The notes beneath the pieces are model-generated. The model did no database searches. It worked only from the letters and a program-made list of their open reading frames with translations, and was not told where the DNA came from. From Solirubrobacterales bacterium (GTDB taxonomy: Bacteria > Actinomycetota > Thermoleophilia > Solirubrobacterales > Solirubrobacteraceae): a stretch of DNA of 64,000 nt. Below, one piece after another: positions 30,667 to 53,956 of the stretch. How positions within the stretch are numbered: the first letter of the stretch is position 1; each line of letters opens with the position of its first letter. The DNA lies in contig DAIDME010000034.1 of the NCBI GenBank assembly GCA_027449125.1, forward strand, positions 28,380 through 92,379. The letters are read 5' to 3'. Made by a program: the position numbers and the translations under genes.

Positions 30667-31626
30667 ATGCCAGCATGGACGTTCGTGCCCCTCTTCGGAC
30701 GGCAGAAGGGTGCGGCGCCGCCCACGGCGGAGGAGCTGCACGCAGCCGAGGTAGACCTCGAGCGGATTCGCCGTGGCGGCATCCCGCTCGGCGCAGAGCA
30801 ACGCCTCAAGCGCGTGGCTGGGGCCAGCACTCCCTTCTTCACGAGCGATCTGACGGCCAAGGAGTACGCGCTGGCCGACGCCTCCGGCCTGCAGCCGATC
30901 GCGCAGGTGATGGGCTCATCCGTTGTCCAGAAGGGCTTCATGGGCAGCCAGGGCATGTACACCGCTGGCGGCGAGCTGCGGGCGCTGGCGGAGCCGTGGA
31001 ACATGGCCCGGGACCGGGCGTTTGACAGGCTTCGCCAGGAGGCGACACTGGCCGGTGCCGACGCCGTGATCGGGATCGACATCAACGCCGGCTCGCTGGG
31101 CGATGCCGGCAACATCGAGCTGGTCGTGTTCGGCACGGCGGTGCGCGACAACACGAAGCCGGCCGGTGGGCCCGGCGGGCCGGCGATGTGCACGCTGTCC
31201 GGCCAGGACGTGGACAAACTCCGCCGCATCGGCGCCGAGATCAGGGGCGTCGTGGGCCACACGACGGTGATCTCGACGGCGCTGGGACGCAACTCGGCCT
31301 GGGCGATGAGCGGCGGCGGCATGATGGGTGGCGGCGCCCGCATGAACGTGGAGATCACTGAGATCGCCCAGGGTGTCTACGACGCCCGCAACCGGGTGAT
31401 GCTCGCTGTACGCCGTCAAGCCAACGAGGTGGAGGCCAACAACATCGTGGTCTCGACGCTACGCCACACGATCGAGCACTTTGAGTACGAGCAGCCGGGC
31501 GGCTACCGTGCCCACTTCTTCCATGTCACCATGAACATCCTCGGCACGGCGATCAGGCTCGGCGCCCGCCCGCCGCACCCGGCGCCGCTGGCCAGGCCGG
31601 TCCTGTCCGTCAACCTCGGCACTTAG
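30667..31626 (+). CDS. double YbjQ/DUF74 (UPF0145) domain protein, paralog A
   Basis: 319-aa ORF. Repeat 1 is FTSDLTAKEYALADASGLQPIAQVMGSSVV...ADAVIGIDIN...ELVVFGTAVR. A second, more divergent repeat is CTLSGQDVDKLRRIGAEIRGVVGHTTV...NNIVVSTLRH...FHVTMNILGTAIR. Confidence 0.7.
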   Translation: MPAWTFVPLFGRQKGAAPPTAEELHAAEVDLERIRRGGIPLGAEQRLKRVAGASTPFFTSDLTAKEYALADASGLQPIAQVMGSSVVQKGFMGSQGMYTAGGELRALAEPWNMARDRAFDRLRQEATLAGADAVIGIDINAGSLGDAGNIELVVFGTAVRDNTKPAGGPGGPAMCTLSGQDVDKLRRIGAEIRGVVGHTTVISTALGRNSAWAMSGGGMMGGGARMNVEITEIAQGVYDARNRVMLAVRRQANEVEANNIVVSTLRHTIEHFEYEQPGGYRAHFFHVTMNILGTAIRLGARPPHPAPLARPVLSVNLGT

Positions 31627-31640
31627 CAGAAGGAGCAGCT

Positions 31641-32465
31641 ATGTCCACCTATGATCCCCACAGCACCGAGGGCTTGGCGGCACACGCCAGCGAGCGCCTG
31701 CAGATGAACGCGCGTGGCCTGTTCACCTCGGACCTCTCCGTCAACGAGTACCTGTGCGTCGAGAAGGCCGGGTTCTCACCAGTCGGCCTGGTCGTCGGCT
31801 CGAGCATCTACCACGTCGGCTACCAGTTCGCGGGCCTGCGCCAGAGCCAGGAGCTGGACGTCCTGAGCCAGGCCATGTACAACGCCCGCGAGCTGGCGAT
31901 GACACGCATGGAGGAGGAGGCCGACCAGCTCGGCGCCGACGGTGTCGTCGGCGTGCGCCTCGACATCGGGCGCTACGAGTGGGGTGCGGACATGGCCGAG
32001 TTCATCGCCGTCGGCACCGCGATCAAGCACAAGGAGGGCAGGCTGCATCGCGCGCCCAACGGGCGGCCGTTCACGAGCGACCTCTCCGGACAGGCGTTCT
32101 GGACGCTGATGCAGACCGGCAAGCGGCCCGTGGGGATGGTGATGGGCAGCTGCGTGTACCACGTCGCGCACCGCGGCATGATGCAGTCGCTCAAGCAGAC
32201 CGGGCAGAACGTCGAGCTCGAGCAATACACCCAGGCGCTGTACGACGCACGCGAGCTGGCGATGGAGCGGATGCAGAAGGAAGCCGAGGCGATCGGCGAC
32301 GGCGTGCTCGGGATCGTCGAGGTCAAACTGCACGAGAACAGCCACGGCTGGGGCAGCCACGTGATCGAGTTCTTCGCGCTTGGCACCGCCGTGGTCACCA
32401 ACGAGCACGTCGGCGACGGCATGAGCCTGCCCGAGATCACGCCCGTCCTGGACATCAACGACTGA
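31641..32465 (+). CDS. double YbjQ/DUF74 (UPF0145) domain protein, paralog B
   Basis: 274-aa ORF with two clear repeats. They are FTSDLSVNEYLCVEKAGFSPVGLVVGSSIY...GADGVVGVRLD...FIAVGTAIK and FTSDLSGQAFWTLMQTGKRPVGMVMGSCVY...VLGIVEVKL...FFALGTAVV. A strong SD (GAAGGAG) lies 6 nt upstream of the ATG. Confidence 0.75.
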   Translation: MSTYDPHSTEGLAAHASERLQMNARGLFTSDLSVNEYLCVEKAGFSPVGLVVGSSIYHVGYQFAGLRQSQELDVLSQAMYNARELAMTRMEEEADQLGADGVVGVRLDIGRYEWGADMAEFIAVGTAIKHKEGRLHRAPNGRPFTSDLSGQAFWTLMQTGKRPVGMVMGSCVYHVAHRGMMQSLKQTGQNVELEQYTQALYDARELAMERMQKEAEAIGDGVLGIVEVKLHENSHGWGSHVIEFFALGTAVVTNEHVGDGMSLPEITPVLDIND

Positions 32466-32542: not shown

Positions 32543-33178
32543 GTGCTCGTCCTCCTGCCCCCTTCGCGAAGCCAGGCAGCCCCCGCCGGCGGGCGTCCCG
32601 TCGCCCTCTCGAAGCTCGCCTACCCGAGCCTGCGCGAGCCGCGCGAGCGCCTGCTCGCGAGCGTCGATCCCGCGCTCACCCGCGCTCCGGCGGCACCTGC
32701 CGCCGACCTCTACACAGGCGTGCTCTACAGGGAGCTCGGCCTGGGCGAGCTGCCGTGGGACGGCGTGCTCATCGCCAGCGCCCTCTGGGGTGTCGTGCGT
32801 CCCGGCGACAGGATCCCGGCCTACCGGCTGGACATCGCCACCAGGCTGCCCGGCCTGGGCGGCCTCGCGGCTCACTGGCGCGAGCCGCTGCGCTGGGCGC
32901 TCCCCGACCGAGGCTTCGTCCTCGACCTGCGCTCCGGCGCCTATGCCGCCGCCTGGCGCCCCCGCCGCGCGAAGCTGCTCACGGTGCACGCGTTCCGCGA
33001 GGCACCGGACGGGAGCCGCACGGTGGTCACGCACATGGCCAAGCAGGCACGGGGCAGGGTTGCACGACTGGTGCTGCAGGCGGGCGCCGTCAGCAGACCC
33101 GAGGAGGTCGCCGAGATCGTCGCCGCCACCGGGCTCCGCGTCGAGCTCTCCGACGGCAGGCTCGACGTCATTCAGTGA
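32543..33178 (+). CDS. yaaA: YaaA-like (DUF328, peroxide-stress protein family)
   Basis: This is the last 211 aa of the listed 474-aa ORF: VLVLLPPS..., DLYTGVLYRELG, IASALWGVVRPGDRIPAYRLD and THMAKQARGRVARLV. I placed the start at GTG 32543. Confidence 0.7.
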   Translation: MLVLLPPSRSQAAPAGGRPVALSKLAYPSLREPRERLLASVDPALTRAPAAPAADLYTGVLYRELGLGELPWDGVLIASALWGVVRPGDRIPAYRLDIATRLPGLGGLAAHWREPLRWALPDRGFVLDLRSGAYAAAWRPRRAKLLTVHAFREAPDGSRTVVTHMAKQARGRVARLVLQAGAVSRPEEVAEIVAATGLRVELSDGRLDVIQ

Positions 33179-33199
33179 CGCTCAGGCTTCCGGTCGCGT

Positions 33200-33223
33200 C
33201 CGGCCAGCCCGCTGGCTGGCCGG
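33200..33223. terminator. GC-rich hairpin between convergent genes (candidate intrinsic terminator)
   Basis: CCGGCCAGCC-cgct-GGCTGGCCGG, a perfect 10-bp stem with a 4-nt loop and no U-tract. A second 9-bp stem lies at 33234-33242 / 33260-33268. Confidence 0.4.
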
Positions 33224-33294
33224 CGCACAGCAGCCCCGCGTGGGACGGGCACGCCGCTACACGCGGGGCGAGCGCCGGCGCTACGACCAGCGGA

Positions 33295-34119
33295 TCAGCC
33301 GATCGTGATCGTCAGGCCGCCGCCGCTCGAAGGCTTGCCGCGGTGGTGACGCCTGCGGCGCGGGCGCCGGTTCCGGTGACGGCGCGGAGCGGTCGCCACC
33401 GATGCGCTCGTGGACTCGAGCGCGGGGCGGACCGCAAAGAAGCGCAGCTCGTGCGCCCATGTGAAGGTGAGGCCGGCGGTGCTGTAGCCCGACAGGATCA
33501 GATACGCGAACGAGCCGCTGCCACCGGCCGCGGAGTAGCCGCCACCGGCCACCAGCGGCGCCGAGGTCTGATTCCAGAGGATGATGTCGCGGTGCCCCCA
33601 GCAGCCCGGCGACCCAGCCGATGGGCACGCGAGGTTGCTGTCGAAGCCGTTGGGGCCGTCGTCGTACATCCACAGGTAGTCGGCGGCGACGATCGAGCTC
33701 GCCCCTGCCCAGATGGCGCCACCACCGGCGAATGGCCCCGCCGGGAACGGGGGGTCGGTTTCATTGGCCGCTCCCTGGGCGGCGAGGCGGTCCAAGGACG
33801 AGCTGAGCCCCACGATCGGAGCCAGGCCACGATTGACGCGCTCCAGGTTGATCAGCACGAAGCCCTGCTGCACCGGCGTGAGCCTCTGCCAGTTCGTTGG
33901 CAGCACCAGTGAGCCCACGCCTTCACGCCCGCGACAGGCGTCGATGTTGGCGACGCTCCAGTAGCCGCTCACCGTCGCGGCGTGGTCGCAATCGGATGCC
34001 GGGTTCTGCGGTGGCAGGATCCCGGCCGTGGCCGCGTCTGCGACGGCGGTGGCGAGCAGCAGCGTCAGGGCCGTCAGGCAGAGGGCGAGCAGCGAGTGGA
34101 TCCAAGGCCGGTTGCGCAC
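33295..34119 (-). CDS. secreted protein of unknown function (weak CAP/SCP-like resemblance) with Arg-rich C-terminal tail
   Basis: 274-aa ORF with a Sec signal MRNRPWIHSLLALCLTALTLLLATAVADA. CWGHRDIIL is reminiscent of the CAP-domain GHRxNIL. The tail is PRRHRNRRPRRRRHHRGKPSSGGGLTITIG. Confidence 0.6.
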   Translation of the reverse strand: MRNRPWIHSLLALCLTALTLLLATAVADAATAGILPPQNPASDCDHAATVSGYWSVANIDACRGREGVGSLVLPTNWQRLTPVQQGFVLINLERVNRGLAPIVGLSSSLDRLAAQGAANETDPPFPAGPFAGGGAIWAGASSIVAADYLWMYDDGPNGFDSNLACPSAGSPGCWGHRDIILWNQTSAPLVAGGGYSAAGGSGSFAYLILSGYSTAGLTFTWAHELRFFAVRPALESTSASVATAPRRHRNRRPRRRRHHRGKPSSGGGLTITIG

Positions 34120-36598: not shown

Positions 36599-38848
36599 TT
36601 ACGGAATGACGACGATGACCTTCGCCCGTGGCCCCGCCGCAGCCTGCGCAGCGGGATCGGCGGGAGCCACGATCGGGCTGTCGGCCTGCAGGACGTGCGC
36701 CAGCAGCTTGGCCTGCACTCGTGAGCCGACTGTGTACAGAACCTCGTAGCCCCCCGGGGCCGGGGAGTTCAGGTTGGACGCACCGAGCACGTCGATGTGC
36801 TTGGCACGGAGCGACCGGGCCAGCTTGCCCGCGGCCCCCTGCGTGGTTCCGGCGTTCAACACCACGACCGGCGCGCTCACCGGTGAAACGGAGGCCTTCG
36901 GACGCGGACGCGGACGCGCGGCACCCGTCGCGACGGCCACCACCACCCCGCCCCCGGCAAGGACGAAGGCGACGAGCGCCGCAAGCGCGAAGGTGGACAC
37001 CGAGCCACGCTGGCGGTACACCGCTCTGTCGCTCTGGCTACCGAGCACGGCTCCCGCGCCGGCGCCCGCCCCCGCCGCCGCCGGCATCGGCGCGCCACCG
37101 GCGATCCGGGTCAGCTGCCCCTCCAGCGCGATGAGGTGATCGCTGACCCTGGTGGCAGCCAGACGCATGTCTCCGACCCTGGCGTGCCGACGCCACAGCA
37201 GCAGGGTGCCGCCCACCAGCGCGAGAACCGCCATGAAGCCACCCACCTCGCCGACCGTTTGCACCGGCGACGGGGCTGCGCTGGCCACGGTGACGGTGGC
37301 AGGCGGTGCCGTCTGATGCTGGACGTCCTTACGCACCGAACCGGCGGCCGCTCCGATCACAGGTGCGGTGCGCTCCGCCACCTCGAGCATCTGCGTATTG
37401 GTCAGACCCAGCGTGAGCGTGTTCTGCACCCAGTAACCGGCACCGTTGGCAAACCACGCGACCGTCTTGATGTGAGCGCCGTCGTAGTACACGTAGTAGG
37501 TCCGGCCGGCGAACTTGAACGACTGCGTCGGGCTGTCGAAGATCGGCGCCGTCAGCCACGTGGTGCCCTGCACGTCGTAGTACTGGCCCAGCAGGCCCGT
37601 GGAGAACACGGCCACATAGATCGGGTAGTTGTGCCCGCCCGGGGCTGGAACCGTGTAGCTGCGGAAGCGCGTCGGGTAGCCGAACCCGTTGTCAATCTTC
37701 ACCGGCGGAACCTCAAGCGGGAACGAGAGGTGGCGAGCGATCGCCCTGGCGTTCGCCAACGTCGTCGCCGACACCGGCACGAGATCCGGCGTTGCCGTCT
37801 TGGAGGCCCGCACCCGCTTCGCCAGCCCCACGGTCGTGCGCTTCGCCGGTGGGATGCCGGTCCCGTAGAGGAACGAGTCGACGCTCTCGGTTATCTGCTG
37901 CGGCGAGGAGGTGACGCACGCGCAGTTGGTGGCGACGCCGAGGTTGGCCTGGAACTTCACCTGCCGCACAGGCCGGCTGGCCACCTGAATCAACGTCCCG
38001 ATCAGGTTCTGGACGCCCTGCTGCGTGTGCAGCGAGGCGTCGGTCTGCACCAGGTGGCCGAAGATGTTCTCGAACTTGGCGATGTGGTCGATCAACGTCG
38101 GCCCGTACTGCTGCTTTACCTCGAGCAGGAAGTCCTGGTCGCGAGCGTCACGCTCGAGCGAGGTGTCGTCGTGGCGGTATGTCACGAACTGGAGGGCCTG
38201 GCGCCCGCACAGCTTCTGGTAGCCCGGCTGCAGGTTCACCTGGAAGTACTGTGGCCCGCCGGGCCGGTTCACGTGGAAGTAGCGGCGGTCGATCGTGCCG
38301 TAGACGCAACCCATCTCGTTCACGGCCTTGACGAAGTTGCCGAAGTCGATCTCCACCACGTGGTTGACCGAAAGCCCCGTCACCTGCTTGATCATCGACA
38401 CCACCCGGTTGATCCCGCCGCACATCAGTGCGGCGTTCAGGCGCGTCGTCGTCAGACCGTTGCAGCTGGGGTTGAAGGTCACCTGCAGCTCGCGCGGGAT
38501 CGACATCATCGAGATCCAGGGCTTGCCCGGGTCGATCCGGACCAGCAGCATCTCGTTGGCGTGCGGCACCACCGGCGTGGTGCTCGTGTGCAGGCGCTGG
38601 TCGTTGCCGATCAGCAGCAGCGTCTGGGGACCGCCGAACGGTGCCGGTGCCAGCGTGCCGTTGCTCAGCACGAGGCTCTTGCTGGAGCCGATCGCGTGCG
38701 TGAGCTGCGCGACCTGGGCGTTGACGAACACGACCGTCGTCGCGGCCGCCGCCACCACTACCGCGAACGCGGCCACGAGGACCCTCAACGGTGCAGGCAG
38801 GCGTCGGCCGTTCGCTCGCATCATCGACGATGATATTGGCCGTCGCAT
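36599..38848 (-). CDS. LytR-CpsA-Psr (LCP) family phosphotransferase with extra domains and C-terminal LytR_C-like domain
   Basis: 749-aa ORF with an N-terminal TM. The LCP core is LLLIGNDQR...ANEMLLVRIDP...MMSIPRELQV...VNHVVEIDFGNFVKAVNEMG...CGRQALQFVTYRHDDTSLERDARDQDFL. There are two further hydrophobic segments. The C-terminus is VVVLNAGTTQGAAGKLARSL.... Confidence 0.88.
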   Translation of the reverse strand: MRRPISSSMMRANGRRLPAPLRVLVAAFAVVVAAAATTVVFVNAQVAQLTHAIGSSKSLVLSNGTLAPAPFGGPQTLLLIGNDQRLHTSTTPVVPHANEMLLVRIDPGKPWISMMSIPRELQVTFNPSCNGLTTTRLNAALMCGGINRVVSMIKQVTGLSVNHVVEIDFGNFVKAVNEMGCVYGTIDRRYFHVNRPGGPQYFQVNLQPGYQKLCGRQALQFVTYRHDDTSLERDARDQDFLLEVKQQYGPTLIDHIAKFENIFGHLVQTDASLHTQQGVQNLIGTLIQVASRPVRQVKFQANLGVATNCACVTSSPQQITESVDSFLYGTGIPPAKRTTVGLAKRVRASKTATPDLVPVSATTLANARAIARHLSFPLEVPPVKIDNGFGYPTRFRSYTVPAPGGHNYPIYVAVFSTGLLGQYYDVQGTTWLTAPIFDSPTQSFKFAGRTYYVYYDGAHIKTVAWFANGAGYWVQNTLTLGLTNTQMLEVAERTAPVIGAAAGSVRKDVQHQTAPPATVTVASAAPSPVQTVGEVGGFMAVLALVGGTLLLWRRHARVGDMRLAATRVSDHLIALEGQLTRIAGGAPMPAAAGAGAGAGAVLGSQSDRAVYRQRGSVSTFALAALVAFVLAGGGVVVAVATGAARPRPRPKASVSPVSAPVVVLNAGTTQGAAGKLARSLRAKHIDVLGASNLNSPAPGGYEVLYTVGSRVQAKLLAHVLQADSPIVAPADPAAQAAAGPRAKVIVVIP

Positions 38849-38953
38849 ACGGCGCGTCTGAAGGACACCTACCGAGAACCTAAAGCGTGTGCCGCAGGCC
38901 GGTCAGACGCCGCGCGGGTCGCTGGTCCGCGCCGGCCCGCGAACCCGCGGCGG

Positions 38954-40486
38954 TCATCCGCGCGGCATGAACTCAGGTACCTCGAGCACATCCGCCAAGC
39001 GCGGGGCGTCCTGTCCGTAGCTGCGCTCGCCGCGACGCACGCGCGGCTCGCCCGTGGGCTCGACCAACCGCGGACGCGGGCGGGGCTCGTCGTAGCCGGT
39101 CGCGACGACCGTGATCCACACCTGACCGCCCTCGATCTTCTCGTCGACCATGGCGCCGAAGATGATGTTCGCGTCAGGATGGGCCGCTTCCGCAACCGCC
39201 CTGGCCGCCTCGTTTACCTCCCAAAGCGAGATGTCGGGGCCACCGGTGATGGACAGCAGGAGCGAACGGGCGCCCTCCACGCTTGTCTCGAGCAGCGGCG
39301 AAGCCACGGCCGCCTCGGCCGCCTCGATCGCGCGACGCTCGCCGGTGCCCATGCCGATCCCGAGCAGCGCGCTGCCCGCATCCGACATGATCGTGCGCAC
39401 ATCCGCGAAGTCCAGGTTGATGAGGCCGGGGAGCGTGACCAGGTCGGAGATCCCCTGCACGCCCTGGCGCAGGACGTCGTCGGCCACACGGAACGCCTCG
39501 ACCATTGTCGTGTTGCGGTCGAGCACCGTCAGCAGACGGCTGTTCGGCACCACGATCAGCGTGTCGACCGCGTCCTTGAGCGCCTGGATGCCCGCCTCAG
39601 CCTGTTCCCGCCTGCGGCTGCCCTCGAACTGGAACGGCCGCGTGACGATCCCGACCGTGAGCGCGCCCAGCTCGCGGGCGATGTCTGCCACGACGGGCGC
39701 GGCGCCGGTGCCGGTGCCGCCACCGGCACCGGCGGCGATGAACACCATGTCAGCGCCGCGGAGCAGCGCCTTGATCTGGTCGTGCTCCTCCCGCGCCGCC
39801 TGCCTACCCAGGTCCGGGTTCGATCCGGAGCCCAGGCCGCGTGTGATGGCCTCGCCGATGTGCAGCGTGGTGCTGGCGGCCGAGGTCTGCAGCGACTGCA
39901 GGTCGGTATTGATCGCGATGAACTCGACGCCCTCGATGTCGGCTTCGATCATGCGGTTGACGGCGTTCACGCCTGCACCACCGACTCCGACCACGCGGAT
40001 CACCGGCCGCCCGACCGGACGCAGCGAGCTGAGCGCCGGCTCGAAGTGGGACTGGGGACGCGCGTACACGTCGGGTGGCGCCGCGGTGGGCTGCTTCCGG
40101 TCAGCTTCAGCCGGAGGATCCATCAGGCTCGCTGGAATGTCCGCCGCAAACGCCAGCTCCAGGCGCTCCTGCGGGGATGGAACGCCCGGGAGTCGCGGCT
40201 GACCTGTGCCGACGCCGTGCTGCGCCGGTGCGCCCAGAGGCGCGGACGGCGCCAGTGAGGGGTGCGGCAGCGCCCGCGGCGGTGCGGCCGGCTCCGGTGC
40301 GGCCGGCTCCGGTGCGGCCGGCCTTGGCGCGGCCAGCTCCGGCGCGGCCGGCCCTGGTGCGGCCGGCTCCTGGGCCCCGGCGGCCGCCTGCGCAGGCTCC
40401 GTTGGCGGCTCCGTGTCCAGTGCAGTCTTGCGGAACAGCTGCGAGAGCGGCCCTTCGCGCATACTCGCGCGCTTAGCGGTGGGCAT
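38954..40486 (-). CDS. ftsZ: cell division protein FtsZ with ~165-aa N-terminal extension
   Basis: The core is [18 protein letters not shown]..., [11 protein letters not shown] (tubulin signature) and the T7 region [12 protein letters not shown]. The C-terminal peptide is [13 protein letters not shown] 40486 is preceded by AAGGAGGT with an 8-nt spacer. Confidence 0.93.
40281..40370. repeat. six tandem 15-nt units inside the ftsZ 5' region (encode AAPEP-type Pro/Ala pentapeptides)
   Basis: GGTGCGGCCGGCTCC occurs perfectly at 40281, 40296 and 40356. Variants occur at 40311, 40326 and 40341. Confidence 0.9.
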
Positions 40487-41240
40487 TGGCCAGGACCTCC
40501 TTAGCGAGCTGACGGTAGGAGTGCGCCGCGATCCCGTCGGGATCGTATTTGAGCACGGACATGCCTTTCACCGGAGCCTCGGCGAAGCGCACGGTCTTGC
40601 GAATGCGAGACGCGAACACACGGTCGCCGAAGTTCTCCTCCAGGAGCTCGATCGCCTCCTTGGCATGCAGCGTGCGGGTGTCGACCATGGTCGGCAGGAT
40701 CCCCTGGATCTCGACGTTCGGGTTGAGGTTTTCGCGGATCATCGCCAACGTGTTCTGCAACTGGATGAGCCCTCGCATCGACAGATACTCGCACTGCACG
40801 GGGACGATAACCCGGCTGGCGGCCGTCAAGGCGTTGATCGTCAGCAGACCGAGACTCGGCGGCGTGTCGATGAAGCAGTAGTCGTAGTCCTCGGCGACCT
40901 CGCGCAGAGCCCGTTCCAGCGAGCGCTCACGTCCGATCATCGTCGACATGGCTATCTCAGCCCCGGCGAGATCGATCGAGGCGCAGGCGACATCGACCTC
41001 GCGCTTGTGGATCACCTGACGGATCGGCATCTTGTGGACGAGCACGTCGTACATCGACTCTTTCAGGTTGTCCGGGTCGATCCCCTGGGACATGGTCAGG
41101 TTGCCCTGGGGGTCCATGTCGCAGCAGAGGACCCGGTAGCCCTCCTCCGCGAAAGCCGCGGCAAGGTTGAGCGTGGTGGTGGTCTTGGCGACGCCGCCCT
41201 TCTGGTTGGCGAACGCGATCACCTCGAGGCTGGCCGTCAC
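40473..41240 (-). CDS. ParA/Soj-family (deviant Walker A) ATPase, orphan (no parB adjacent)
   Basis: [24 protein letters not shown]... matches Soj-like proteins throughout. I placed the start at GTG 41240, preceded by GGAGGAG (41246-41252). Its TAA stop (40473-40475) lies inside the ftsZ ORF. Confidence 0.9.
40495..40502 (-). promoter_or_regulatory. Shine-Dalgarno sequence for the extended ftsZ start
   Basis: The reverse complement reads AAGGAGGT, 8 nt upstream of ATG 40486. It is embedded in the last codons of the parA-like gene. Confidence 0.7.
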
Positions 41241-41379
41241 GGGCGCTCCTCCAAATGCGGGCGGGTTGCTGACAGACGCATACGCCGCCTGTATTCGCAG
41301 CCTGTCGCACGATTCCTGCATCCGTCCGGGGGGCCGTGGCGAACCGGAGCCGCCGCGGCCACTCGGCTATGTTCCAGGC

Positions 41380-42303
41380 GTGCTGGAACCCGCGCTGCTC
41401 AGCCGCCACCTGATCTTCATAACCGGCAAGGGAGGCGTCGGCAAGACGACCGTGGCCCTGGCGCTGGGCCAGGCCGCCGCGGCGTCGGGTCGCAGAACGA
41501 TCGTGGCCGACCTCCAGGGGGAAGGCGACGCGCGCGAGGAAGAGCTCGCGCCGGGCCTGATGCGCGTATCGATAGACCCGCAGTCGGCCATGGAGGAGTA
41601 TCTGACGGTCAAGGTGCCGTCGCCGGCCGCCCAGCTGCTGCGTCAGAGCCACCTCTTTGCGGCCTTTGCGATGGCGACTCCGGGCATGCGGGAGCTGCTG
41701 TCCATCGGCAAGCTCTGGGAGCTGGCCCAGCCGCAGCGCCGCACAGCGAATGCTCAGGCATACGATCTGGTGGTGGTGGACGCGCCGGCCTCCGGCCATG
41801 GCGCGGCGCTGCTCCGCGCCCCCCGGACCTTCGCCGAGATCGCCCGTGTCGGGCCGATCGCACATCAGGCGCGCACGATCGCGGATACGGTCTCGGACCC
41901 GGACTTCACAGCCGTGGTCGCCGCCACCACCGCCGAGGAGATGCCGGTCACCGAGACGCTCGAGCTGCGCGACTCCCTGCGCCGCGGCGCCGACCCCCTG
42001 GACCTCCACGCGGTGATCCTCAACGGCCGTTACCCGCGCCGCTTCAGCGACGGCGAGGCGCACGCCCTCCAAGCGCTCCGAGACCGCAGCCAGACGCCCG
42101 CTCAGCTGCGCCAGATGCTGGACGCAGGCCTCGCCGAACACGCTCGTGCGCACCTGCAGGAGCAGCAGGAGCAGCGCCTGATGTCGGCCTTCCCGGACGC
42201 AGTGATCACCCTCCCCTACCTCTTCGAGCCTGCACTGGAGCTACCGCAGCTCTCGCTGCTCGCCGCCGAGTTGCGCGCGCAGATCGCCGGAGCCGGCGCA
42301 TGA
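41380..42303 (+). CDS. ArsA/Get3-like P-loop ATPase, paralog 1
   Basis: LIFITGKGGVGKTTVALALG... and DLVVVDAPASGHG. I placed the start at GTG 41380. Its stop overlaps the ATG of paralog 2 (ATGA at 42300-42303). Confidence 0.8.
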   Translation: MLEPALLSRHLIFITGKGGVGKTTVALALGQAAAASGRRTIVADLQGEGDAREEELAPGLMRVSIDPQSAMEEYLTVKVPSPAAQLLRQSHLFAAFAMATPGMRELLSIGKLWELAQPQRRTANAQAYDLVVVDAPASGHGAALLRAPRTFAEIARVGPIAHQARTIADTVSDPDFTAVVAATTAEEMPVTETLELRDSLRRGADPLDLHAVILNGRYPRRFSDGEAHALQALRDRSQTPAQLRQMLDAGLAEHARAHLQEQQEQRLMSAFPDAVITLPYLFEPALELPQLSLLAAELRAQIAGAGA

Positions 42304-43427
42304 GCACGGCTGCTGGTCACGACCAGGGCGATGCCGCACAGCTGCTCGCCGGTCGCCGCATCTGCGTCTGCGTGGGCGCGGGCGGCGTGGGCAAGACTAC
42401 TACGGCTGCCGCGCTGGCGATCGGCATGGCGATGCGCGGCCTGAAGGTGGTCGTGGTGACGATCGACCCGGCCAGGAGGCTGGCCAACGCGCTTGGGCTG
42501 GAGAGCCTCGACAACGAGCCCCGGCGCGTGCTCGGGGGCGAGCGCAGTGATGCTCGGACCGCGGCGATGCCGGAGATCAGCGGGGAGCTGTGGGCGGTGA
42601 TGCTAGACCCCAAGCGGACTTTCGACGAGCTGATCGATCGGGTTGCGCCGACGCCGCAGCGCGCCGCAGAGATCAAGCGCAACGGCGTCTACCGGCAGCT
42701 GTCGGGCGCCGTTGCCGGTTCACAGGAGTTCACGGCCATAGAAAAGCTGTATGAGCTCGCCGAGGACGACTACGACCTGCTTGTGCTCGACACCCCCCCG
42801 GCCCACAGCGCCACCGAGTTTCTGAACGCACCCGGGCGCCTGACGGCATTCCTCGGCGGCGGCGCACTGCAGACGCTGCTGCGCCCCACCGGGCTGGGGA
42901 TGCGCCTGCTCGGCATCGGCGCATCGCCGCTGCTGGCCGCGCTGCGGCTCGTCACCGGCGTAGACCTGCTGACGGACCTGACCCGCTTCCTGACGCTGAT
43001 CGGCGGGATGACCGGCGAGTTCAGCGCGCGCGCGGCGAGAGTGGAGGCTTTGCTGCACGCGCAGACAACGGGATTCGTGCTCGTCACCACCGCCCAGACT
43101 CACCCGGTGCAGGAGGCGATCTGGTTTCGCGATACGCTGCGCGCGAGCAGCATGCCCTTCGCCGGCACGATCGTCAACCGGGTCGCACCTGTGGTGGCGC
43201 CGTCGACGCAAGCTGTCGGGGAGAGCCCTCTGCCAGCTGCCCTCGCGGATCGTCTGCTGGCCTGCGCCGAGGACCACGCGATCCTTGCCAACCGTGACCG
43301 GGCGAACGTCGCGCGCCTGCGCGAGCGGTTCGGCGACGAGCCGCTCTTGATCGTTCCCGACCTGGACGAGCGCCTGACCGATGTGGACGGGCTGGTCATG
43401 ATCCAACGCGAGCTCTTCCGTGTCTGA
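42300..43427 (+). CDS. ArsA/Get3-like P-loop ATPase, paralog 2
   Basis: This is the last 375 aa of the listed 1073-aa ORF: ICVCVGAGGVGKTTTAAALAIGMA...VVTIDPARRLANALGL...LLVLDTPPAHS. Confidence 0.85.
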   Translation: MSTAAGHDQGDAAQLLAGRRICVCVGAGGVGKTTTAAALAIGMAMRGLKVVVVTIDPARRLANALGLESLDNEPRRVLGGERSDARTAAMPEISGELWAVMLDPKRTFDELIDRVAPTPQRAAEIKRNGVYRQLSGAVAGSQEFTAIEKLYELAEDDYDLLVLDTPPAHSATEFLNAPGRLTAFLGGGALQTLLRPTGLGMRLLGIGASPLLAALRLVTGVDLLTDLTRFLTLIGGMTGEFSARAARVEALLHAQTTGFVLVTTAQTHPVQEAIWFRDTLRASSMPFAGTIVNRVAPVVAPSTQAVGESPLPAALADRLLACAEDHAILANRDRANVARLRERFGDEPLLIVPDLDERLTDVDGLVMIQRELFRV

Positions 43428-44637
43428 GGCCGGCAAAGCTGGGCTGATGGCGGTGGACGCGGCGCTGGCCGCGATCCTCGCGCAGGCGCAACCGCTCCCG
43501 GCTGAGACGGTGTCGCTGACCCACAGCCACGGCCGTTACCTCGCGGTCGACGTGGCTGCGCCGCTCGACCTGCCGCCGTTCCGGGCATCGGCGCTGGACG
43601 GCTTCGCCGTGCGGCACGCCGACACTCCCGGCCGGCTGCGCATCGTCGGCGAGTCCGCGGCCGGAGCGCCGTACGGCGAGCCGCTCGGCGCGGGCGAAGC
43701 CGTTCTGATCTCCACCGGGGCGGTGGTCCCGGACGGCGCGGATGCGGTCGTGCCAGTCGAGTGGGTTCCCGACGCCGGCGGCGAGACGCTGCTGGTGCCG
43801 GAGCGGGTGAACGATCAGAACGCCATCCGCGCGGCCGGAAGCGATGTCAGACAGGGCACCGTGACGCTCGCGCGCGGCACCCGCATGAGCGCCGTCCACA
43901 TCGGCACGGCGGCGGCACTGGGGCTCGGCCGGCTGCTCTGCGGCCGGCCCCCGAGCGTCGCGGTGCTGGCCACCGGCAGCGAGCTGCGCCAGCCTGGAGA
44001 CAGGCTCGCTCCGGGGCAGATCTACAACTCAAACGCGCCGATGCTGGCGAGCGCGCTGGCGACGGCCGGCGCCTCCGTGACGCTGCTGGCGGCGGCAGCC
44101 GACACGCAAACGGAGCACCGTGAGGCGGTGGCGCTCGCGCTCGAGCACGACGTGATGGTCAGCACCGGCGGCGTCTCGGTCGGCGGCCACGACCTGGTGC
44201 GAGAGGTGATGGCCGAGCTGGGCGTGCACGAGCTCTTCTGGCGGGTTGCCATGAAGCCGGGCAAGCCGCTCAGCTTCGGCGTCCGAACACAGCCGGACGG
44301 CCGCCGTACGCTCGTCTTCGGCGTGCCCGGCAACCCGGTGTCGGCGCTGGTCTGTTTCGAGCTCTTCGTGCGGCCGGCGGTGGCGGCGCTCCAGGGCGCG
44401 AGGGACCCGGGGCCGCACTACGCGCCCGGCACCCTGGCCTCGAGCATTCGCCGTGACCCTGGTCGCGATCAGCTGATCCGCGTCCGGCGTGCCGCGGGCG
44501 GTGCGCTCGAGCCGCTGCGGGGGCAGCAGTCACACCAGCTGGCCGAGCTGGCCGGCGCCGACGGACTCGCGCGGATCCGTGCGGGTGCCGACGAGCTGGC
44601 CGCCGGCACCGTTGTCGATTACCTGCCGCTGCGCTGA
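43420..44637 (+). CDS. moeA: molybdopterin molybdenumtransferase
   Basis: 405-aa ORF that is MoeA-like throughout (PPFRASALDGFAV, VSTGGVSVGGHDLV, VFGVPGNPVSALV). GTG 43420 overlaps the arsA-like stop. ATG 43447 is an alternative start. Confidence 0.92.
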   Translation: MSEAGKAGLMAVDAALAAILAQAQPLPAETVSLTHSHGRYLAVDVAAPLDLPPFRASALDGFAVRHADTPGRLRIVGESAAGAPYGEPLGAGEAVLISTGAVVPDGADAVVPVEWVPDAGGETLLVPERVNDQNAIRAAGSDVRQGTVTLARGTRMSAVHIGTAAALGLGRLLCGRPPSVAVLATGSELRQPGDRLAPGQIYNSNAPMLASALATAGASVTLLAAAADTQTEHREAVALALEHDVMVSTGGVSVGGHDLVREVMAELGVHELFWRVAMKPGKPLSFGVRTQPDGRRTLVFGVPGNPVSALVCFELFVRPAVAALQGARDPGPHYAPGTLASSIRRDPGRDQLIRVRRAAGGALEPLRGQQSHQLAELAGADGLARIRAGADELAAGTVVDYLPLR

Positions 44638-45176
44638 GGCCGAACCGCCGCCGCATCAGCTGAGGCGACCGGCGAGAGCTCTGCGACGCCGCTCACGAGC
44701 AGCTGCCACACCACCTGCGCAGACAGCTCCCGGCAGGCGGCCGGCGAGCCGTCGGGCAGCAGCTCGCCGGCGAGCGCCAGGATGTCGGGAGCGGCTGTTG
44801 GGCCGGCCGAGAGCCGGCCCAACAGCCGCTCCCGAAGCCGTTCACGCTGACCGCGCTCATCCCCCGCAAAGGGTGCGGCAACGCGCGCCCGCGCATGCTC
44901 GCGGGCAGCGGCAAGCACACGCGCGGTGACATCCTTCGCGGTGCGCTCGGCGTTCTGCCAGCCGCGCCCGAGCGCCAGCTGGTCGGTGCGCAGCACCGCC
45001 CCCTCGTAGACCGTGAGCTGCGTCTCGCGCGGGGCGAACTCGTGGCCCTCGACCGAGAACTCCTCACCGGCGAGCAGCGGCTCGAGGAACCCATGCCAGA
45101 GCTCGGCATCGCCGAGATTGAAGCGGCGGACCACGTGCATCCCCATCCGGAGCTCGGCGTGAAACATGCGCCGCAC
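44619..45176 (-). CDS. hypothetical protein
   Basis: 185-aa ORF with high third-position GC across my hand translation. I recognised no motif. It starts 24 nt downstream of the 432-aa gene. Its 3' end overlaps the moeA 3' end by 19 nt. Confidence 0.65.
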   Translation of the reverse strand: MRRMFHAELRMGMHVVRRFNLGDAELWHGFLEPLLAGEEFSVEGHEFAPRETQLTVYEGAVLRTDQLALGRGWQNAERTAKDVTARVLAAAREHARARVAAPFAGDERGQRERLRERLLGRLSAGPTAAPDILALAGELLPDGSPAACRELSAQVVWQLLVSGVAELSPVASADAAAVRPQRSGR

Positions 45177-45200
45177 CCTACAGCGCGGAGCCTGCGACCG

Positions 45201-46499
45201 TCACACCAGTGCAGCGTCCAGCTCCTCGACGGCTTGGCCGAGGAGCTCGTCGGCGACGGTGCACAGGTCGGCGTCCAGATGCCCGCACAGCACGTCCCGC
45301 AGGATCGCGCGCAGATTGTCGGCAAGCTCGACGGCGAGCTCCATGCCCTCGGACCCGTCCGAGACCATGCCCGTGATCACCGAGCGCTCGAGCGCGATCG
45401 CCCGAGCCGCCCGCGCGGCCGCCGCGGCCCGATCACCAGGACCGGCGCAGATCATCGCCAGTCGCTGAGCGAGACGCCCGCTCGCCGGCCCTTCCGGCTC
45501 CAGCAACGCCCGCAGCGCCAGCAGATGGTCGCTCAACGCCTGGTACGGCGTCGCGCGCTCGCAGCCCATCTCAAACCGAGCGAGCGCCCAGGACAGCTCG
45601 CCGGCTCCCGAGCTGTCGAGCCCGTGCCCGTGCGCGGAGCCCGGCAGCCGGCGGCCTATCAGGCTGCAGAAGGCGCGCAACTCGTCCTCGGCGGCCCGTG
45701 GGATCAAGGTCAGTTGCCGTGAGCGACCACCGGTGCCGATCGCGACCGGGGACCAGGCTCCGGAGTCGACCCGCGAGTAGCCGACGGCACTCAGCGCGAA
45801 GTCGCCGCGCTCGAACAGGCGCAGCGCTGTGAGCACGCGCTGGAAGCGCGCACGGGCAAAGGCGACCGACGGTCGCGCGTCGCGCTCATGCGCCACCCGC
45901 GCGACCAAGAGCAACGGCGGCTGCGCGGCATCGGCCAGCTCGGCGGGTGCGGCCGCCAGGGCGCCGGCACGCTGCAGCGAGACCCCGTCGCCCAGCGCCA
46001 GCTCATCGGTCTTGGGGTCCAGGTCGATGCCCAGCACGGCGACCACGACCTCCGTGACGTGGCGACCCTCATAGATCGCCTGCTCCAGCTCCTCGTAGGC
46101 GGCGCTGAAGCGCAGCTCGTCGACCGCGAAGTCGGTGCGCTCGCAGAACACCCGGGACAGGAATCGAAGGACAACGGCCACCGCCCGCTCGCGGGGCTGC
46201 TCCGGCACGAGGTCGCGACCCGCCATGCTGCGCAGGTACAGGTCGAGGCCGCCGACGCCCGCGAGCGTCCTGACCACCGGCAGGAAGCTGGGGAGCTCCG
46301 TCAGCAGGCCGAGACGCTCGCCGATGTAATCCCCGGTGAGCGGCCTGTAGCAGTAGAGCGCGGGGCGCCCCCGGTGTGTCTCAGCGCTGGAGATGACATC
46401 GAAGCGAACCTCGTCGCCACTTGCCACCGCGCGGTCCAGACGGATGCCCGCCGCGACCGTGAAGGCCTCGAGCAGGCCGTGAAGAGTCGGGTTTCTCAC
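45201..46499 (-). CDS. hypothetical protein (432 aa)
   Basis: Long uninterrupted ORF downstream of hxlR. It has no P-loop and no nuclease or metal motif that I can recognise. It is Ala/Leu/Arg-rich. Confidence 0.65.
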   Translation of the reverse strand: MRNPTLHGLLEAFTVAAGIRLDRAVASGDEVRFDVISSAETHRGRPALYCYRPLTGDYIGERLGLLTELPSFLPVVRTLAGVGGLDLYLRSMAGRDLVPEQPRERAVAVVLRFLSRVFCERTDFAVDELRFSAAYEELEQAIYEGRHVTEVVVAVLGIDLDPKTDELALGDGVSLQRAGALAAAPAELADAAQPPLLLVARVAHERDARPSVAFARARFQRVLTALRLFERGDFALSAVGYSRVDSGAWSPVAIGTGGRSRQLTLIPRAAEDELRAFCSLIGRRLPGSAHGHGLDSSGAGELSWALARFEMGCERATPYQALSDHLLALRALLEPEGPASGRLAQRLAMICAGPGDRAAAAARAARAIALERSVITGMVSDGSEGMELAVELADNLRAILRDVLCGHLDADLCTVADELLGQAVEELDAALV

Positions 46500-48137: not shown

Positions 48138-48398
48138 CTGGTTCCGTTTCCGTCGTGTTCCCAGCGGCCGAGCCGACCCCGACCGCTCGAAAGGCGGCGG
48201 CGCCCGCGTCGCGGCGCGCAGCTCACCCACTCAACCATGCGGCAATCTTACTTCGGCCGCACCCACTCATCCACTAAACGGCCGACAGACTGGAGACCTG
48301 TAGCCGTTCGCGGTGTGAGCAGACGCGCATCAGTCATCCTGCTGAAATATCGCAGGTCCGGCCGCGGACCGGTGCCGGCCGGTCACGGCAGCGCGGTG

Positions 48399-49076
48399 AT
48401 GCACAATCGGCTGGTGAAGACGGCCGTCACCTCACTCTGCGCGCTGGTCGCCTGGCTGCTCGTGCGTGACCACCGCCGCCGCGGCCTGCCGGGGCGCGCG
48501 TCGATCGTCTCGCCCCGCCACAGCACACGGGTGGCGGAGGACGGTTCGGTCCATTCGCTCCAGTCGGCGCACCTGGAGCTCCCCAGCGGGCGGCTCGAAC
48601 AGCTCTGGAACCCCGCTCAGCTCGAGAACCTGGGCCGCACCTACTGGCGCTTCCTGACGCGCGCCACGCTCGGCATCGTCCGCGTCATCTACGGTGAGCA
48701 CGAGCGCAGGGTCGTGCTGCTCACACGCCCGCTCACGCTGTTGCGCTTCGAGCCGCCCAGCTACGTGATCGAGCGCGACCACGCGAGCATCAACTGGGCG
48801 ATCCACGACGGCCTGCTCGTCTCTCACGCCGGCCGCGGCAGCGGCTATCTGACGATTCGCGTGACACGCGGGGCCGATGCGGGCGAGCCGGCCAGCCTCG
48901 ACGTGGACGTCGAGGTGGCGAACTTCTACCCGTCCATCGCCTCTCGGCTGGGCACGCCGGTCTACCGCGCGACCCAGGCGATCGTGCACGTGCTGGTCAC
49001 GCACGCGTTCCTGCGCTCGCTCGCCCGTCTGCAGCTTGCCCAGTCTCGAGTCGGCCGCCTCCGTGGCCACCGCTGA
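48399..49076 (+). CDS. hypothetical protein with N-terminal TM
   Basis: MHNRLVKTAVTSLCALVAWLLV..., with no recognised domain. It is divergent from sigA. Confidence 0.55.
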   Translation: MHNRLVKTAVTSLCALVAWLLVRDHRRRGLPGRASIVSPRHSTRVAEDGSVHSLQSAHLELPSGRLEQLWNPAQLENLGRTYWRFLTRATLGIVRVIYGEHERRVVLLTRPLTLLRFEPPSYVIERDHASINWAIHDGLLVSHAGRGSGYLTIRVTRGADAGEPASLDVDVEVANFYPSIASRLGTPVYRATQAIVHVLVTHAFLRSLARLQLAQSRVGRLRGHR

Positions 49077-50904: not shown

Positions 50905-52048
50905 TGTAGTGTCTCGCAAATAGGTGGGGTTTATGGTAGGATGGTGTATGCGCTCTCCTACTGCTGCTATGCCGCTGGCCGAGGGCCAGCGAGAAGTGCT
51001 CGGCAAGCTCGCCCGGTCACAGACCGCCAAGCATCGTGACGTGCAGCGCGCCAAAGCGTTGTTGCTGGCCGCTGATGGTGTCGCGAACACACGGATCGGG
51101 GCGCAGATCGGCGTCTCGCCAACGACTGTTGTCAACTGGCGCGCCCGGTTTGCGCAGGACGGGCTGAAGGGTCTGGGGGTCGTTCGTGATGGCCGCGGCA
51201 GGCGTCCCTCGATCGCGCCTGAGAAGGTCGCGGAGATCGTTGAGTTGACGTTGCATGAGAAGCCCGTGGGTGAGACGCACTGGTCGTGCCGGTCGATGGC
51301 CAGACGGGCCGGCGTGTCACCGGCGAGCGTGCAACGGATCTGGTCGGCCCGCAACATCCAGCCGCATCGTGTGAAGACGTTCAAGCTCTCAAACGACAAG
51401 CGCTTCGAGGAGAAGCTCGTCGATGTCGTCGGTCTGTACCTGAACCCGCCTGAGAACGCAATCGTCCTGTGCATGGACGAGAAGTCCCAGATCCAGGCGT
51501 TGGACCGCACCCAGCCGTCGCTGCCGATCAAGCCGGGCAGAGCCGGAACGATGACCCACGACTACAAGCGCAACGGGACCACAACGCTGTTTGCCGCGCT
51601 GGACGTGCTAACCGGGTCGGTGATCGGGCAGTGCCTGCCCCGTCACCGCCACACCGAGTTTCTGAAGTTCCTGCGCAAGATCGACAAAGAGGTCCCCAGC
51701 GGCCTCCAGATCCACATGATCCTCGACAACTACTGCACCCACAAGCACGAGAACGTGACCAAATGGCTGGCCAAGCACCCCCGCTTCCACCTGCACTTCA
51801 CCCCGACCTCGAGCTCGTGGTGCAACATGGTCGAGCGGTTCTTCGGCAAGCTCACCGACAAAGCGATCCGCCGCGGCGCTTTCCACTCCGTACCCGACTT
51901 GATCGCAGCAATCGAGAGCTACCTCCAGGCCAACAACGACAACCCCCAACCGTTCGTGTGGACCCAAACCGCCGAGCAGATCCTGGAGAAAGTCCGACGC
52001 GGTCGCCTCACCCTCGAACAATCACCAACTAAAACCGAGACACTACAC
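50904..52048 (+). mobile_element. IS630-family insertion sequence with TA target-site duplication
   Basis: The terminal inverted repeats are GTGTAGTGTCTCG (50904-50916) and CGAGACACTACAC (52036-52048), with imperfect matching continuing to about 26 bp. It is flanked by TA (50902-50903) and TA (52049-52050). It contains a single DDE transposase ORF. By eye, its GC content is lower than that of the flanks. Confidence 0.92.
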
Positions 52049-52051
52049 TAG
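50969..52051 (+). CDS. IS630-family DDE transposase
   Basis: N-terminal HTH (ANTRIGAQIGVSPTTVVNWRARFAQDGLKGL) and a DDE region (VLCMDEKSQIQAL...MILDNYCTHKH...SSSWCNMVERFF). I placed the start at ATG 50969 (MPLAEGQREVL). The stop codon TAG spans the IR/TA junction. Confidence 0.92.
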   Translation: MPLAEGQREVLGKLARSQTAKHRDVQRAKALLLAADGVANTRIGAQIGVSPTTVVNWRARFAQDGLKGLGVVRDGRGRRPSIAPEKVAEIVELTLHEKPVGETHWSCRSMARRAGVSPASVQRIWSARNIQPHRVKTFKLSNDKRFEEKLVDVVGLYLNPPENAIVLCMDEKSQIQALDRTQPSLPIKPGRAGTMTHDYKRNGTTTLFAALDVLTGSVIGQCLPRHRHTEFLKFLRKIDKEVPSGLQIHMILDNYCTHKHENVTKWLAKHPRFHLHFTPTSSSWCNMVERFFGKLTDKAIRRGAFHSVPDLIAAIESYLQANNDNPQPFVWTQTAEQILEKVRRGRLTLEQSPTKTETLH

Positions 52052-53950: not shown

Positions 53951-53956
53951 GGGCGC

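Follow-up and report, generated by a model that had tools for sequence, protein, structure and literature searches.

Control over where FtsZ polymerises is exerted in several described bacterial systems by ATPases of the ParA/MinD family. For example, MipZ of Caulobacter needs polar ParB and contacts FtsZ directly, and MinD needs a membrane-targeting helix together with MinC and MinE. In PomXYZ of Myxococcus xanthus, the subject of work by Schumacher et al., the ParA-like PomZ is reportedly activated by the N-terminal peptide of PomX, and the cluster on the nucleoid is said to recruit FtsZ to midcell. The choice of division site in Actinomycetota is, to our knowledge, a long-standing gap: we know of no MinCDE, Noc or SlmA there, and of no agreed target for the ParA paralogues PldP and Rv1708. 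Across the ParA/MinD family, the partner of the ATPase is usually encoded beside it and contacts it by way of an N-terminal peptide that is disordered and positively charged (PMC10241942). In M. xanthus ParB the ParA-binding motif is L11-G-R13-G-L15-x-x-L18-I19, with hydrophobic residues at positions 11, 15, 18 and 19 and a central R13, and efficient activation of ParA needs two juxtaposed peptides, as shown for ParB clamps (PMC12462528). Here we analyse a 64-kb stretch of DNA from a Solirubrobacterales bacterium (contig DAIDME010000034.1; the whole stretch is called the window below), in which a parA-like gene runs directly into ftsZ. The arrangement and sequence of these genes suggest, without amounting to proof, that the ATPase positions the division ring by direct action on FtsZ.

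For comparison with relatives, one genome per GTDB species was scanned, which gave 80 loci, all in Solirubrobacterales sensu lato: isolates of Conexibacter, and metagenome-assembled genomes of Conexibacteraceae and Solirubrobacteraceae. A further contig, L081, carries the NCBI label Thermoleophilaceae. Mean identities were computed against the protein of the window over 76-78 species. The features on which the argument turns are as follows.

40473..41240, minus strand: parA-like gene encoding 255 amino acids (aa) from the GTG at 41240 (Pfam AAA_31 at 202 bits, CbiA and MipZ; matches in the Protein Data Bank, PDB)

40473..40502, minus strand: junction of translational coupling between parA and ftsZ (read from the sequence; same layout in 80 of 80 loci and in L081)

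40415..40486, minus strand: head peptide of FtsZ, residues 1-24 (codon table, alignments, head profile and AlphaFold2)

The ftsZ gene (40486..38954, minus strand) encodes 510 aa and opens with the ATG at 40486-40484. A Shine-Dalgarno (SD) sequence, AAGGAGGT, lies at 40502-40495 inside the 3' end of parA, separated from this ATG by a spacer of 8 nucleotides (nt), and the stop codon of parA (TAA, 40475-40473) falls in ftsZ codons 4-5, giving an overlap of 14 nt. An earlier note on this DNA, made by a model from the letters, had described the parA stop within the ftsZ reading frame, the ATG at 40486 and the SD with its 8-nt spacer, and a direct reading of the sequence verified all of these junction coordinates. 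The overlap from ATG to TAA, with the TAA 11 nt past the A of the ATG, is identical in 80 of 80 loci and in the Thermoleophilaceae contig, one locus having an additional codon. Across the 81 sequences the ATG is kept in 80 (the other is one codon out of register). The SD AAGGAGGT precedes the ftsZ ATG across loci and is perfect in 79 of 81 sequences; the variant in L054 is GGGAGGT. A comparison of orthologues, which the same note had proposed as a check, found the N-terminal extension, the head and the adjacency of parA and ftsZ conserved in all 80 loci and in L081. Conservation of the junction and of the head across relatives is far beyond chance, and the two genes are translationally coupled and co-conserved across an order-level clade.

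The overlap also bears on where FtsZ begins. A second in-frame ATG at ftsZ codon 9 (40462) is the start chosen by many gene callers; it had escaped the earlier reading, which wrongly took the ATG at 40123 for the only internal one before the tubulin core. Residues K5-R6-A7-S8 are invariant, their codons vary synonymously, and they are located past the parA stop, so that the constraint on them is not attributable to parA. Since the head residues are invariant despite synonymous codon turnover, and K5-S8 lie beyond parA, translation is judged to begin at M1 and not at M9. On the evidence of the codon table over 81 sequences (synonymous variation, invariant residues), the FtsZ extension is translated from M1 and is under strong purifying selection, as the earlier claim of a translated long N-terminus would have it. 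Scans of 38700-41500 for promoter and terminator consensus sequences gave no match, such scans being uninformative for a high-GC actinobacterium.

Public FtsZ entries P0019, P0026, P0051, P0054, P0077, P0088 and P0090 begin at M9 or at codons within the linker. The miscalled starts presumably dodge the overlap with parA, and the lengths annotated for FtsZ in this lineage (379-446 aa) often conceal the head.

In every locus the FtsZ N-terminus follows the pattern M-[PA]...[SA]-x-LFR-[KR]-T. Residues 5-14, 17-19 and 21 are invariant in the 81 sequences, save for one E11D, and positions 15, 16 and 20 vary; T21 is thus among the invariant residues, and D24 is nearly so. Synonymous changes are seen at almost every invariant position of the head. 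For example, R10 is encoded by CGC, CGT, CGG, CGA or AGG, G12 by all four of its codons, L14 by CTG, CTC, CTT or TTG, and S8 by AGC, AGT or TCG. The mean identity of residues 5-21 is 90%, compared with 25% for the linker that follows and 62% for the C-terminal peptide; FtsZ is thus made with an N-terminal arm of about 160 residues, disordered and tipped by a short linear motif that is better conserved than its own canonical C-terminal peptide. In an AlphaFold2 model of FtsZ alone, built from an alignment of 77 orthologues, head and linker are disordered, with predicted local distance difference test (pLDDT) values of 40-58 and about 50 in the head. A peptide at the very tip of a disordered N-terminal region is the architecture of ParA/MinD partners, and in being disordered and positively charged the head matches the general kind of N-terminal peptide that they carry (PMC10241942).

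The order of residues in the head is M9-R10-E11-G12-P13-L14-x-x-L17-F18-R19-K20. The likeness to the N-terminal peptide of ParB that was proposed for it holds for the shared design (basic residues, Gly, then L-x-x-L-[IF]) and breaks down for the sequence, which is out of register and contains a Pro. When the head is set against the ParB motif L-G-[RK]-G-L-x-x-L-[IL], the register holds for no more than the L-x-x-L-[IF] half. Furthermore, the role of a conserved Arg in Thermus Soj/Spo0J, on which the proposal had leaned, belongs to an 'arginine finger' view that has been revised by Schnabel et al. 2025 (PMC12462528).

The stretch T21-x-x-D24 at the end of the head (40415-40426) looks like the pT-x-x-D sites that FHA domains favour. 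A protein with a zinc ribbon and an FHA domain is encoded at 53483-53956 (minus strand), adjoining the gene of a MerR regulator and 13 kb from the head. Control of the head by a Ser/Thr kinase via this FHA protein is purely speculative.

Translation of parA is most likely to start at the GTG at 41240, which has the SD GGAGGA 6 nt before it (41252-41247); the orthologue on L081 is also called at 255 aa, and given these two features a start at the ATG at 41321 (open reading frame (ORF) 41321..40473) was set aside. The mean identity of ParA is 89.5% over 76 species, compared with 87% for the FtsZ core. Its best PDB matches are M. xanthus ParA 8RAY (1.8e-58) and the ParA-like protein 4PFS of M. 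smegmatis (1.9e-57), followed by Soj of T. thermophilus (8.7e-52) and of H. pylori (2e-45); structures of MinD, plasmid ParF and McdA type score far below these Soj/ParA matches. The protein is classified by these matches as a Soj-type member of the ParA/MinD (deviant Walker A) family.

Residues of the window ParA were mapped to those of M. xanthus ParA by means of the D60A marker in the 8RAY chain (offset +19), and the ParA-ParB interface used for comparison is that of Schnabel et al. 2025 (PMC12462528). The deviant Walker A motif NQK14GGVAK19TT, with its signature lysine K14 and K19, is invariant in the alignment, as are the catalytic motif 2, CD41MD43PQGN47 (D58/D60/N64 of M. xanthus), and the Walker B motif FID125TPPSLG, both of which align with 8RAY. 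R218 aligns with the DNA-binding R238 of M. xanthus ParA (in PRNVRLSE) and is predicted to be a non-specific DNA-binding arginine; in B. subtilis Soj the equivalent is presumably R189. The hydrophobic pocket for ParB is kept, V116/L150/L152/L155/L187/L192 being replaced by I96/L130/L132/I135/M167/L172, and the Arg-sensing residues Y81/E82/D110 are likewise retained, as Y64/D65/D90. By contrast, the window ParA has A97 (40950-40952, in GAEIAM) at the position of E117, and all 77 orthologues share this Ala, whereas E117, which belongs to the site sensing the central Arg/Lys of ParB, is reported to be invariant in 3800 ParA homologues (PMC12462528). 4PFS is also without equivalents of E117 and of Y81. 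The chain of the window ParA finishes where 8RAY does in the alignment, at the final helix of the ATPase fold, and lacks a C-terminal membrane helix of the MinD kind; models of MinD score 51 bits on it against a cut-off of 213. The Pfam MipZ model reaches 39.3 bits (cut-off 20.7), far below generic ParA models (AAA_31, 202 bits), and the scores against 4PFS (198 bits) and against canonical chromosomal ParAs (201 and 179 bits) are nearly equal. Taken together, the residues suggest a protein equipped as a nucleoid-bound, peptide-activated ATPase.

The genes usually partnered with such an ATPase were looked for with tblastn, and no parB, minE or minC was found within 6 kb on either side in the 81 loci or in the 64-kb window; the Spo0J, MinE and MinC queries were approximate, so that these negatives are only indicative. 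With the same qualification as to the Spo0J query, the earlier statement that no parB is adjacent stands, and the gene downstream of parA is ftsZ in 80 of 80 loci.

Following the rule that a ParA/MinD partner is usually encoded next to its ATPase (PMC10241942), the position of ftsZ downstream of parA points to FtsZ as the partner in this case. We give about an even chance to the reading that parA-ftsZ is a two-gene positioning module of the ParA/MinD type in which FtsZ itself is the partner of the ATPase. The overlap of the genes, a ParA and a head conserved to the same extreme degree, the change in the Arg-sensing site and the ParB-like design of the head would all fit a dedicated, insulated ParA-FtsZ pair. 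Insulation between ParA systems that reside in one cell has been discussed by Schnabel et al. 2025 (PMC12462528), and A97 in place of E117, together with a head unlike the ParB motif, is as expected for a system insulated from canonical ParABS.

Different outcomes can be envisaged for such a pair. ParA-ATP dimers would coat the nucleoid, and polymerised FtsZ, displaying many heads on long tethers, would be an effective activator of ParA; because activation needs paired peptides, polymers rather than monomers would be the natural activator. ParA would then run low around FtsZ assemblies, and the ParA gradient so formed would position them relative to the nucleoid, either at mid-nucleoid, as with the cargo of PomXYZ and McdAB, or held on or off the nucleoid. 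Alternatively, FtsZ might be captured in a manner resembling nucleoid occlusion, and the net effect could be either positive placement or inhibition of the Z ring. The most explicit version, to which we would give somewhat less than an even chance, is that FtsZ is the cargo of a nucleoid-bound ParA. It would carry a 'luggage-tag' peptide on a tether of ~130 residues, its polymers would bind ParA-ATP dimers and switch them off, and the Z ring would find its own place along the ParA gradient with no need of MinCDE, MipZ-ParB, adaptors of PomXY type, or Noc/SlmA.

Between the head and the C-terminus, FtsZ consists of the following parts.

40187..40414, minus strand: hypervariable linker rich in Pro, Ala and Glu, residues 25-100 (mean identity 25%, conservation profile, Tandem Repeats Finder (TRF), pLDDT below 60)

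40253-40267, minus strand: PHPSL island, residues 74-78 (conservation profile)

40127..40186, minus strand: motif 3, residues 101-120 (mean identity 67%; predicted amphipathic helix)

40055..40072, minus strand: DVYARP island, residues 139-144, just before the globular domain (at least 90% conserved)

38954..40009, minus strand: canonical FtsZ body with C-terminal linker, C-terminal peptide and stop codon (TIGR00065, Pfam Tubulin and FtsZ_C, core mean identity 87%)

The linker varies in length between species. Within it, TRF detects a 15-bp tandem repeat at 40280-40370 (6 copies, 81% matches), which encodes the AAPEP-type repeats of the protein, and slippage of this repeat may be a source of the variability in linker length and sequence between species. 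The invariant residues of motif 3 are R108, L109, F113, D116 and P118, and in the AlphaFold2 model residues 105-114 form a helix, with block-mean pLDDT values of 81 (residues 101-110) and 71 (111-120). The globular part of the protein is an ordinary FtsZ: it scores 418 bits on the TIGR00065 ftsZ equivalog (cut-off 295), with Pfam Tubulin at residues 163-322, FtsZ_C at 371-465 and the GTPase core at 160-465. The GGGTGTG signature (G256-G261) and the T7 loop NLDFAD (N357-D362) are invariant, and the GTPase domain is well folded in the model (pLDDT about 90). The C-terminal peptide (general form D/E-[IV]-P-x-F-[LM]), which serves membrane-anchor proteins, is present, with V503, P504, E505, F506 and P508 at least 90% conserved and a mean identity of 62% overall; a normal tail and core are thus retained, in agreement with the earlier description. 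As a separate observation, the invariant D-I-P of motif 3 recalls the D-[IV]-P-x-F core of the C-terminal peptide of FtsZ.

Several observations weigh against FtsZ being the partner of ParA. Relative to the ParB motif, the Arg and the first hydrophobic residue of the head are offset by one residue, and a Pro is added. The pocket residues beside Walker B are kept in most ParAs for structural reasons, so that finding them here carries little weight. The amphipathic stretch of the head has a hydrophobic moment of 0.51, a measure that fails to tell a ParA-binding helix from a membrane-targeting one, and it could equally be a helix for the membrane or for another partner. Mutual information between head positions 15, 16 and 20 and columns of ParA reaches top values of 0.59-0.92, compared with a top value of 0.81 for the background against FtsZ core columns, and covariation of head and ParA is therefore not above the phylogenetic background. 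In addition, both features occur in every genome of the clade, which leaves no informative contrast of presence and absence. These observations can be set beside an alternative in which the head is a linear motif for a target other than ParA (a membrane helix, docking to the divisome or to a regulator, or an FHA site at T21-x-x-D24) and parA and ftsZ are merely co-expressed to coordinate segregation with division. The hydrophobic moment of the head lies within the range of the membrane-targeting sequences of MinD (0.38) and FtsA (0.78), T21 is invariant and D24 nearly so, the head fails the ParB consensus, and at least three further conserved islands in the extension must bind something. Membrane-targeting helices are usually conserved in character and not residue by residue, whereas here 17 consecutive residues are kept. 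Co-regulation alone sits uneasily with the strict 14-nt overlap in every genome, which points to stoichiometric partners, and any target other than ParA leaves a ParA without an adjacent partner of its own; we consider this alternative unlikely, although it deserves serious attention.

The ATPase itself can also be read differently. It may be an ordinary segregation Soj, or a paralogue of the PldP/Rv1708 type, that uses a ParB encoded elsewhere, its gene being merely parked before ftsZ. Scores against bona fide chromosomal ParAs as high as against 4PFS, and the retention of the DNA-binding Arg and of the hydrophobic ParB pocket, are in keeping with this, and Rv1708 has been reported to interact with ParB and ScpA (bioRxiv 10.1101/2023.03.20.533423). 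Such a reading is nonetheless improbable in our view: every orthologue has Ala in place of E117, none of the 81 loci was found to have a parB next to parA, and an invariant N-terminal FtsZ peptide that starts inside parA would be left unexplained. A slimmer chance is given to ParA as a direct inhibitor of FtsZ polymerisation, resembling MipZ or MinCD, with the head only a recruitment handle and DNA-bound ParA bringing about nucleoid occlusion. The Pfam MipZ score above its cut-off and the conserved DNA-binding Arg speak for it, as does a long tether that allows nucleoid-bound ParA to capture FtsZ. Gradients of the MipZ type, however, need ParB as a factor for dimerisation and release, and no parB is linked here; among family models, generic ParA/Soj (AAA_31) and not MipZ gives the best match. 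This is, moreover, a sub-variant of the proposal that FtsZ is the partner of ParA, and the two are inseparable by sequence alone. Finally, the long N-terminus could in principle be an artefact of annotation, with translation starting at or near the tubulin core, as the database entries that begin at M9 or internal codons might suggest. Residues 5-21 are invariant despite synonymous codon turnover, the ATG and SD are conserved at the frequencies given above, and motif 3 and DVYARP are conserved in frame; an artefact is excluded by the codon evidence for practical purposes, and we give it almost no credence.

On either side of parA-ftsZ lie two further features.

36599..38848, minus strand: LCP (LytR-CpsA-Psr) gene, 749 aa (Pfam LytR_cpsA_psr at the N-terminal end and LytR_C at the C-terminal end)

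41167..43427, plus strand: pair of ATPases of the ArsA/Get3 family, BagA/BagB-like (NCBIfam BagB 275 bits and BagA 107 bits, both under the equivalog cut-offs)

The gene order parA, ftsZ, LCP, all on the minus strand, had been presented in the earlier note as the setting of ftsZ. Its parA-ftsZ part is kept in 80 of 80 loci, but LCP adjoins ftsZ in only 4 of 80 (L001, L002, L006 and L063), the closest relatives, and the conserved unit is therefore parA-ftsZ and not parA-ftsZ-LCP. The LCP protein is unusually long, with a large middle region that has no domain match. The ArsA/Get3 pair is divergent from parA-ftsZ, resembles mycobacterial BagA/BagB and is a neighbour in most Solirubrobacterales loci; across the 80 loci the flanks hold parA, ArsA-like genes and a gene for a LON N-domain. 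On L081 a SIS-domain gene takes the place of the ArsA pair upstream of parA. The FtsZ encoded on this contig (P0265) has a complete head match and its gene the 14-nt overlap with parA; identity to the window proteins is 82% for ParA and about 66% for the part of the FtsZ core that aligns, and the FtsZ linker is quite different, being rich in Glu and Arg.

Among 1.84 billion representative proteins, a profile of the head gave 959 matches at E-values no higher than 0.001, of which the top 150 listed are essentially all FtsZ N-termini, fragments or frameshifted pieces, or likely chimeras. No convincing head on a protein other than FtsZ was found among the matches listed. Two apparent non-FtsZ carriers, P0269 (TolA-like C-terminus) and P0201 (sigma-70 region 4), each come from a singleton soil contig, 1.5 kb and 0.6 kb long, and a chimeric assembly is the most likely origin of both. 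On short singleton contigs from soil metagenomes (L082:821-1372, L083:113-442, P0263) the head is fused to a TolA-like domain, to sigma-70 region 4 and to the C-terminus of ParA (shared 'RKT' codons). Such fusions look like chimeric assemblies seeded by the low-complexity linker and not like new carriers of the head.

Gene content of the window was surveyed by Pfam scans of most ORFs supported by GC content at third codon positions (GC3). A dcw cluster is the customary location of ftsZ, though no defining one. The placing of ftsZ outside a dcw context was borne out, in that the scan of the 64-kb window found no mur, mra or fts genes (besides ftsZ), that is, no dcw genes, and no min or parB genes. 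The content is housekeeping, with an ATP synthase operon, glyA, prfA/prmC, ETF, a primary sigma factor, glpX, proS, sodA, ispG, dxr and an FHA-MerR pair. An IS630-like transposase (DDE_3 and HTH) is encoded among these genes at 50924-52051 (plus strand). ORFs with high GC3 and no Pfam match (E up to 1e-5) are present at 44619-46499 (minus), 48237-49076 (plus), 7380-8606 (plus) and 32755-33912 (plus), with lengths of 193, 432, 279, 408 and 385 aa, and tandem YbjQ_1 genes (putative heavy-metal-binding) with long N-terminal regions lie at 30667-32465 (plus).

Full-text searches of the literature gave no description of a parA-ftsZ arrangement in Thermoleophilia, in Conexibacter or elsewhere. For the lineage of Solirubrobacterales and Thermoleophilaceae, gene arrangement and sequence now point to one ATPase and one FtsZ peptide, and the question becomes experimentally simple, as cultured Conexibacter strains with complete genomes exist. 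If the proposal is true, this would be the first ParA/MinD ATPase with FtsZ itself as its activating partner, and a third, adaptor-free logic of division-site selection would operate in an abundant class of soil Actinomycetota. It would also be a minimal two-gene module for positioning division, of interest to synthetic biology, and many public FtsZ entries of the lineage would have miscalled starts.

When the locus is set against the systems already described, ParABS offers the closest parallels in design: the partner is encoded directly downstream of the ATPase, a short basic and hydrophobic peptide tips its disordered N-terminus, and two juxtaposed peptides are expected for activation. It differs in that the partner there is a parS-binding CTPase with the peptide LG[RK]GLxALI, and here would be FtsZ with another peptide; ParABS has E117, parB and parS, whereas here the residue is Ala and no parB or parS is linked. 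With PomXYZ the locus shares a nucleoid-bound ParA-like ATPase, an N-terminal peptide on the cargo and placement of the division site, in each case as proposed here. There, however, the adaptors PomX and PomY recruit FtsZ, whereas the tag proposed here is on FtsZ itself and needs no adaptor. MipZ-ParB and MinCDE likewise employ ATPases of the ParA/MinD family and control the site of FtsZ polymerisation, as proposed here, but their FtsZ is not known to carry an N-terminal tag, and their ParB, MinC and MinE are not linked in this case.

PldP of Corynebacterium and Rv1708/MSMEG_3743 of mycobacteria are, like the window protein, actinobacterial ParA paralogues without an adjacent parB, and they have been implicated in septum placement. 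Their genes, as we understand it, adjoin xerD and scpAB and not ftsZ, and FtsZ in those organisms presumably has no N-terminal extension. Orthology of these paralogues with the window ParA is not established, given 198 bits to 4PFS and 201 to canonical ParA, and neither is the identity of 4PFS with MSMEG_3743. In heterocyst-forming cyanobacteria, a conserved N-terminal peptide of FtsZ is required for normal polymerisation and division (PMC6175996). That peptide is also a clade-specific, conserved N-terminal extension; it differs in having another sequence, a shorter length (about 50 aa), no coupled ParA gene and a proposed action on polymerisation (PMC6175996). On this comparison, the parA-ftsZ module would work most like ParABS and PomXYZ and would resemble MipZ and MinCDE in its purpose. 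It falls outside each of these systems as defined, since it has no parB or parS, departs from the ParB motif, and is without a MinD membrane helix, MinC or MinE, and PomX or PomY.

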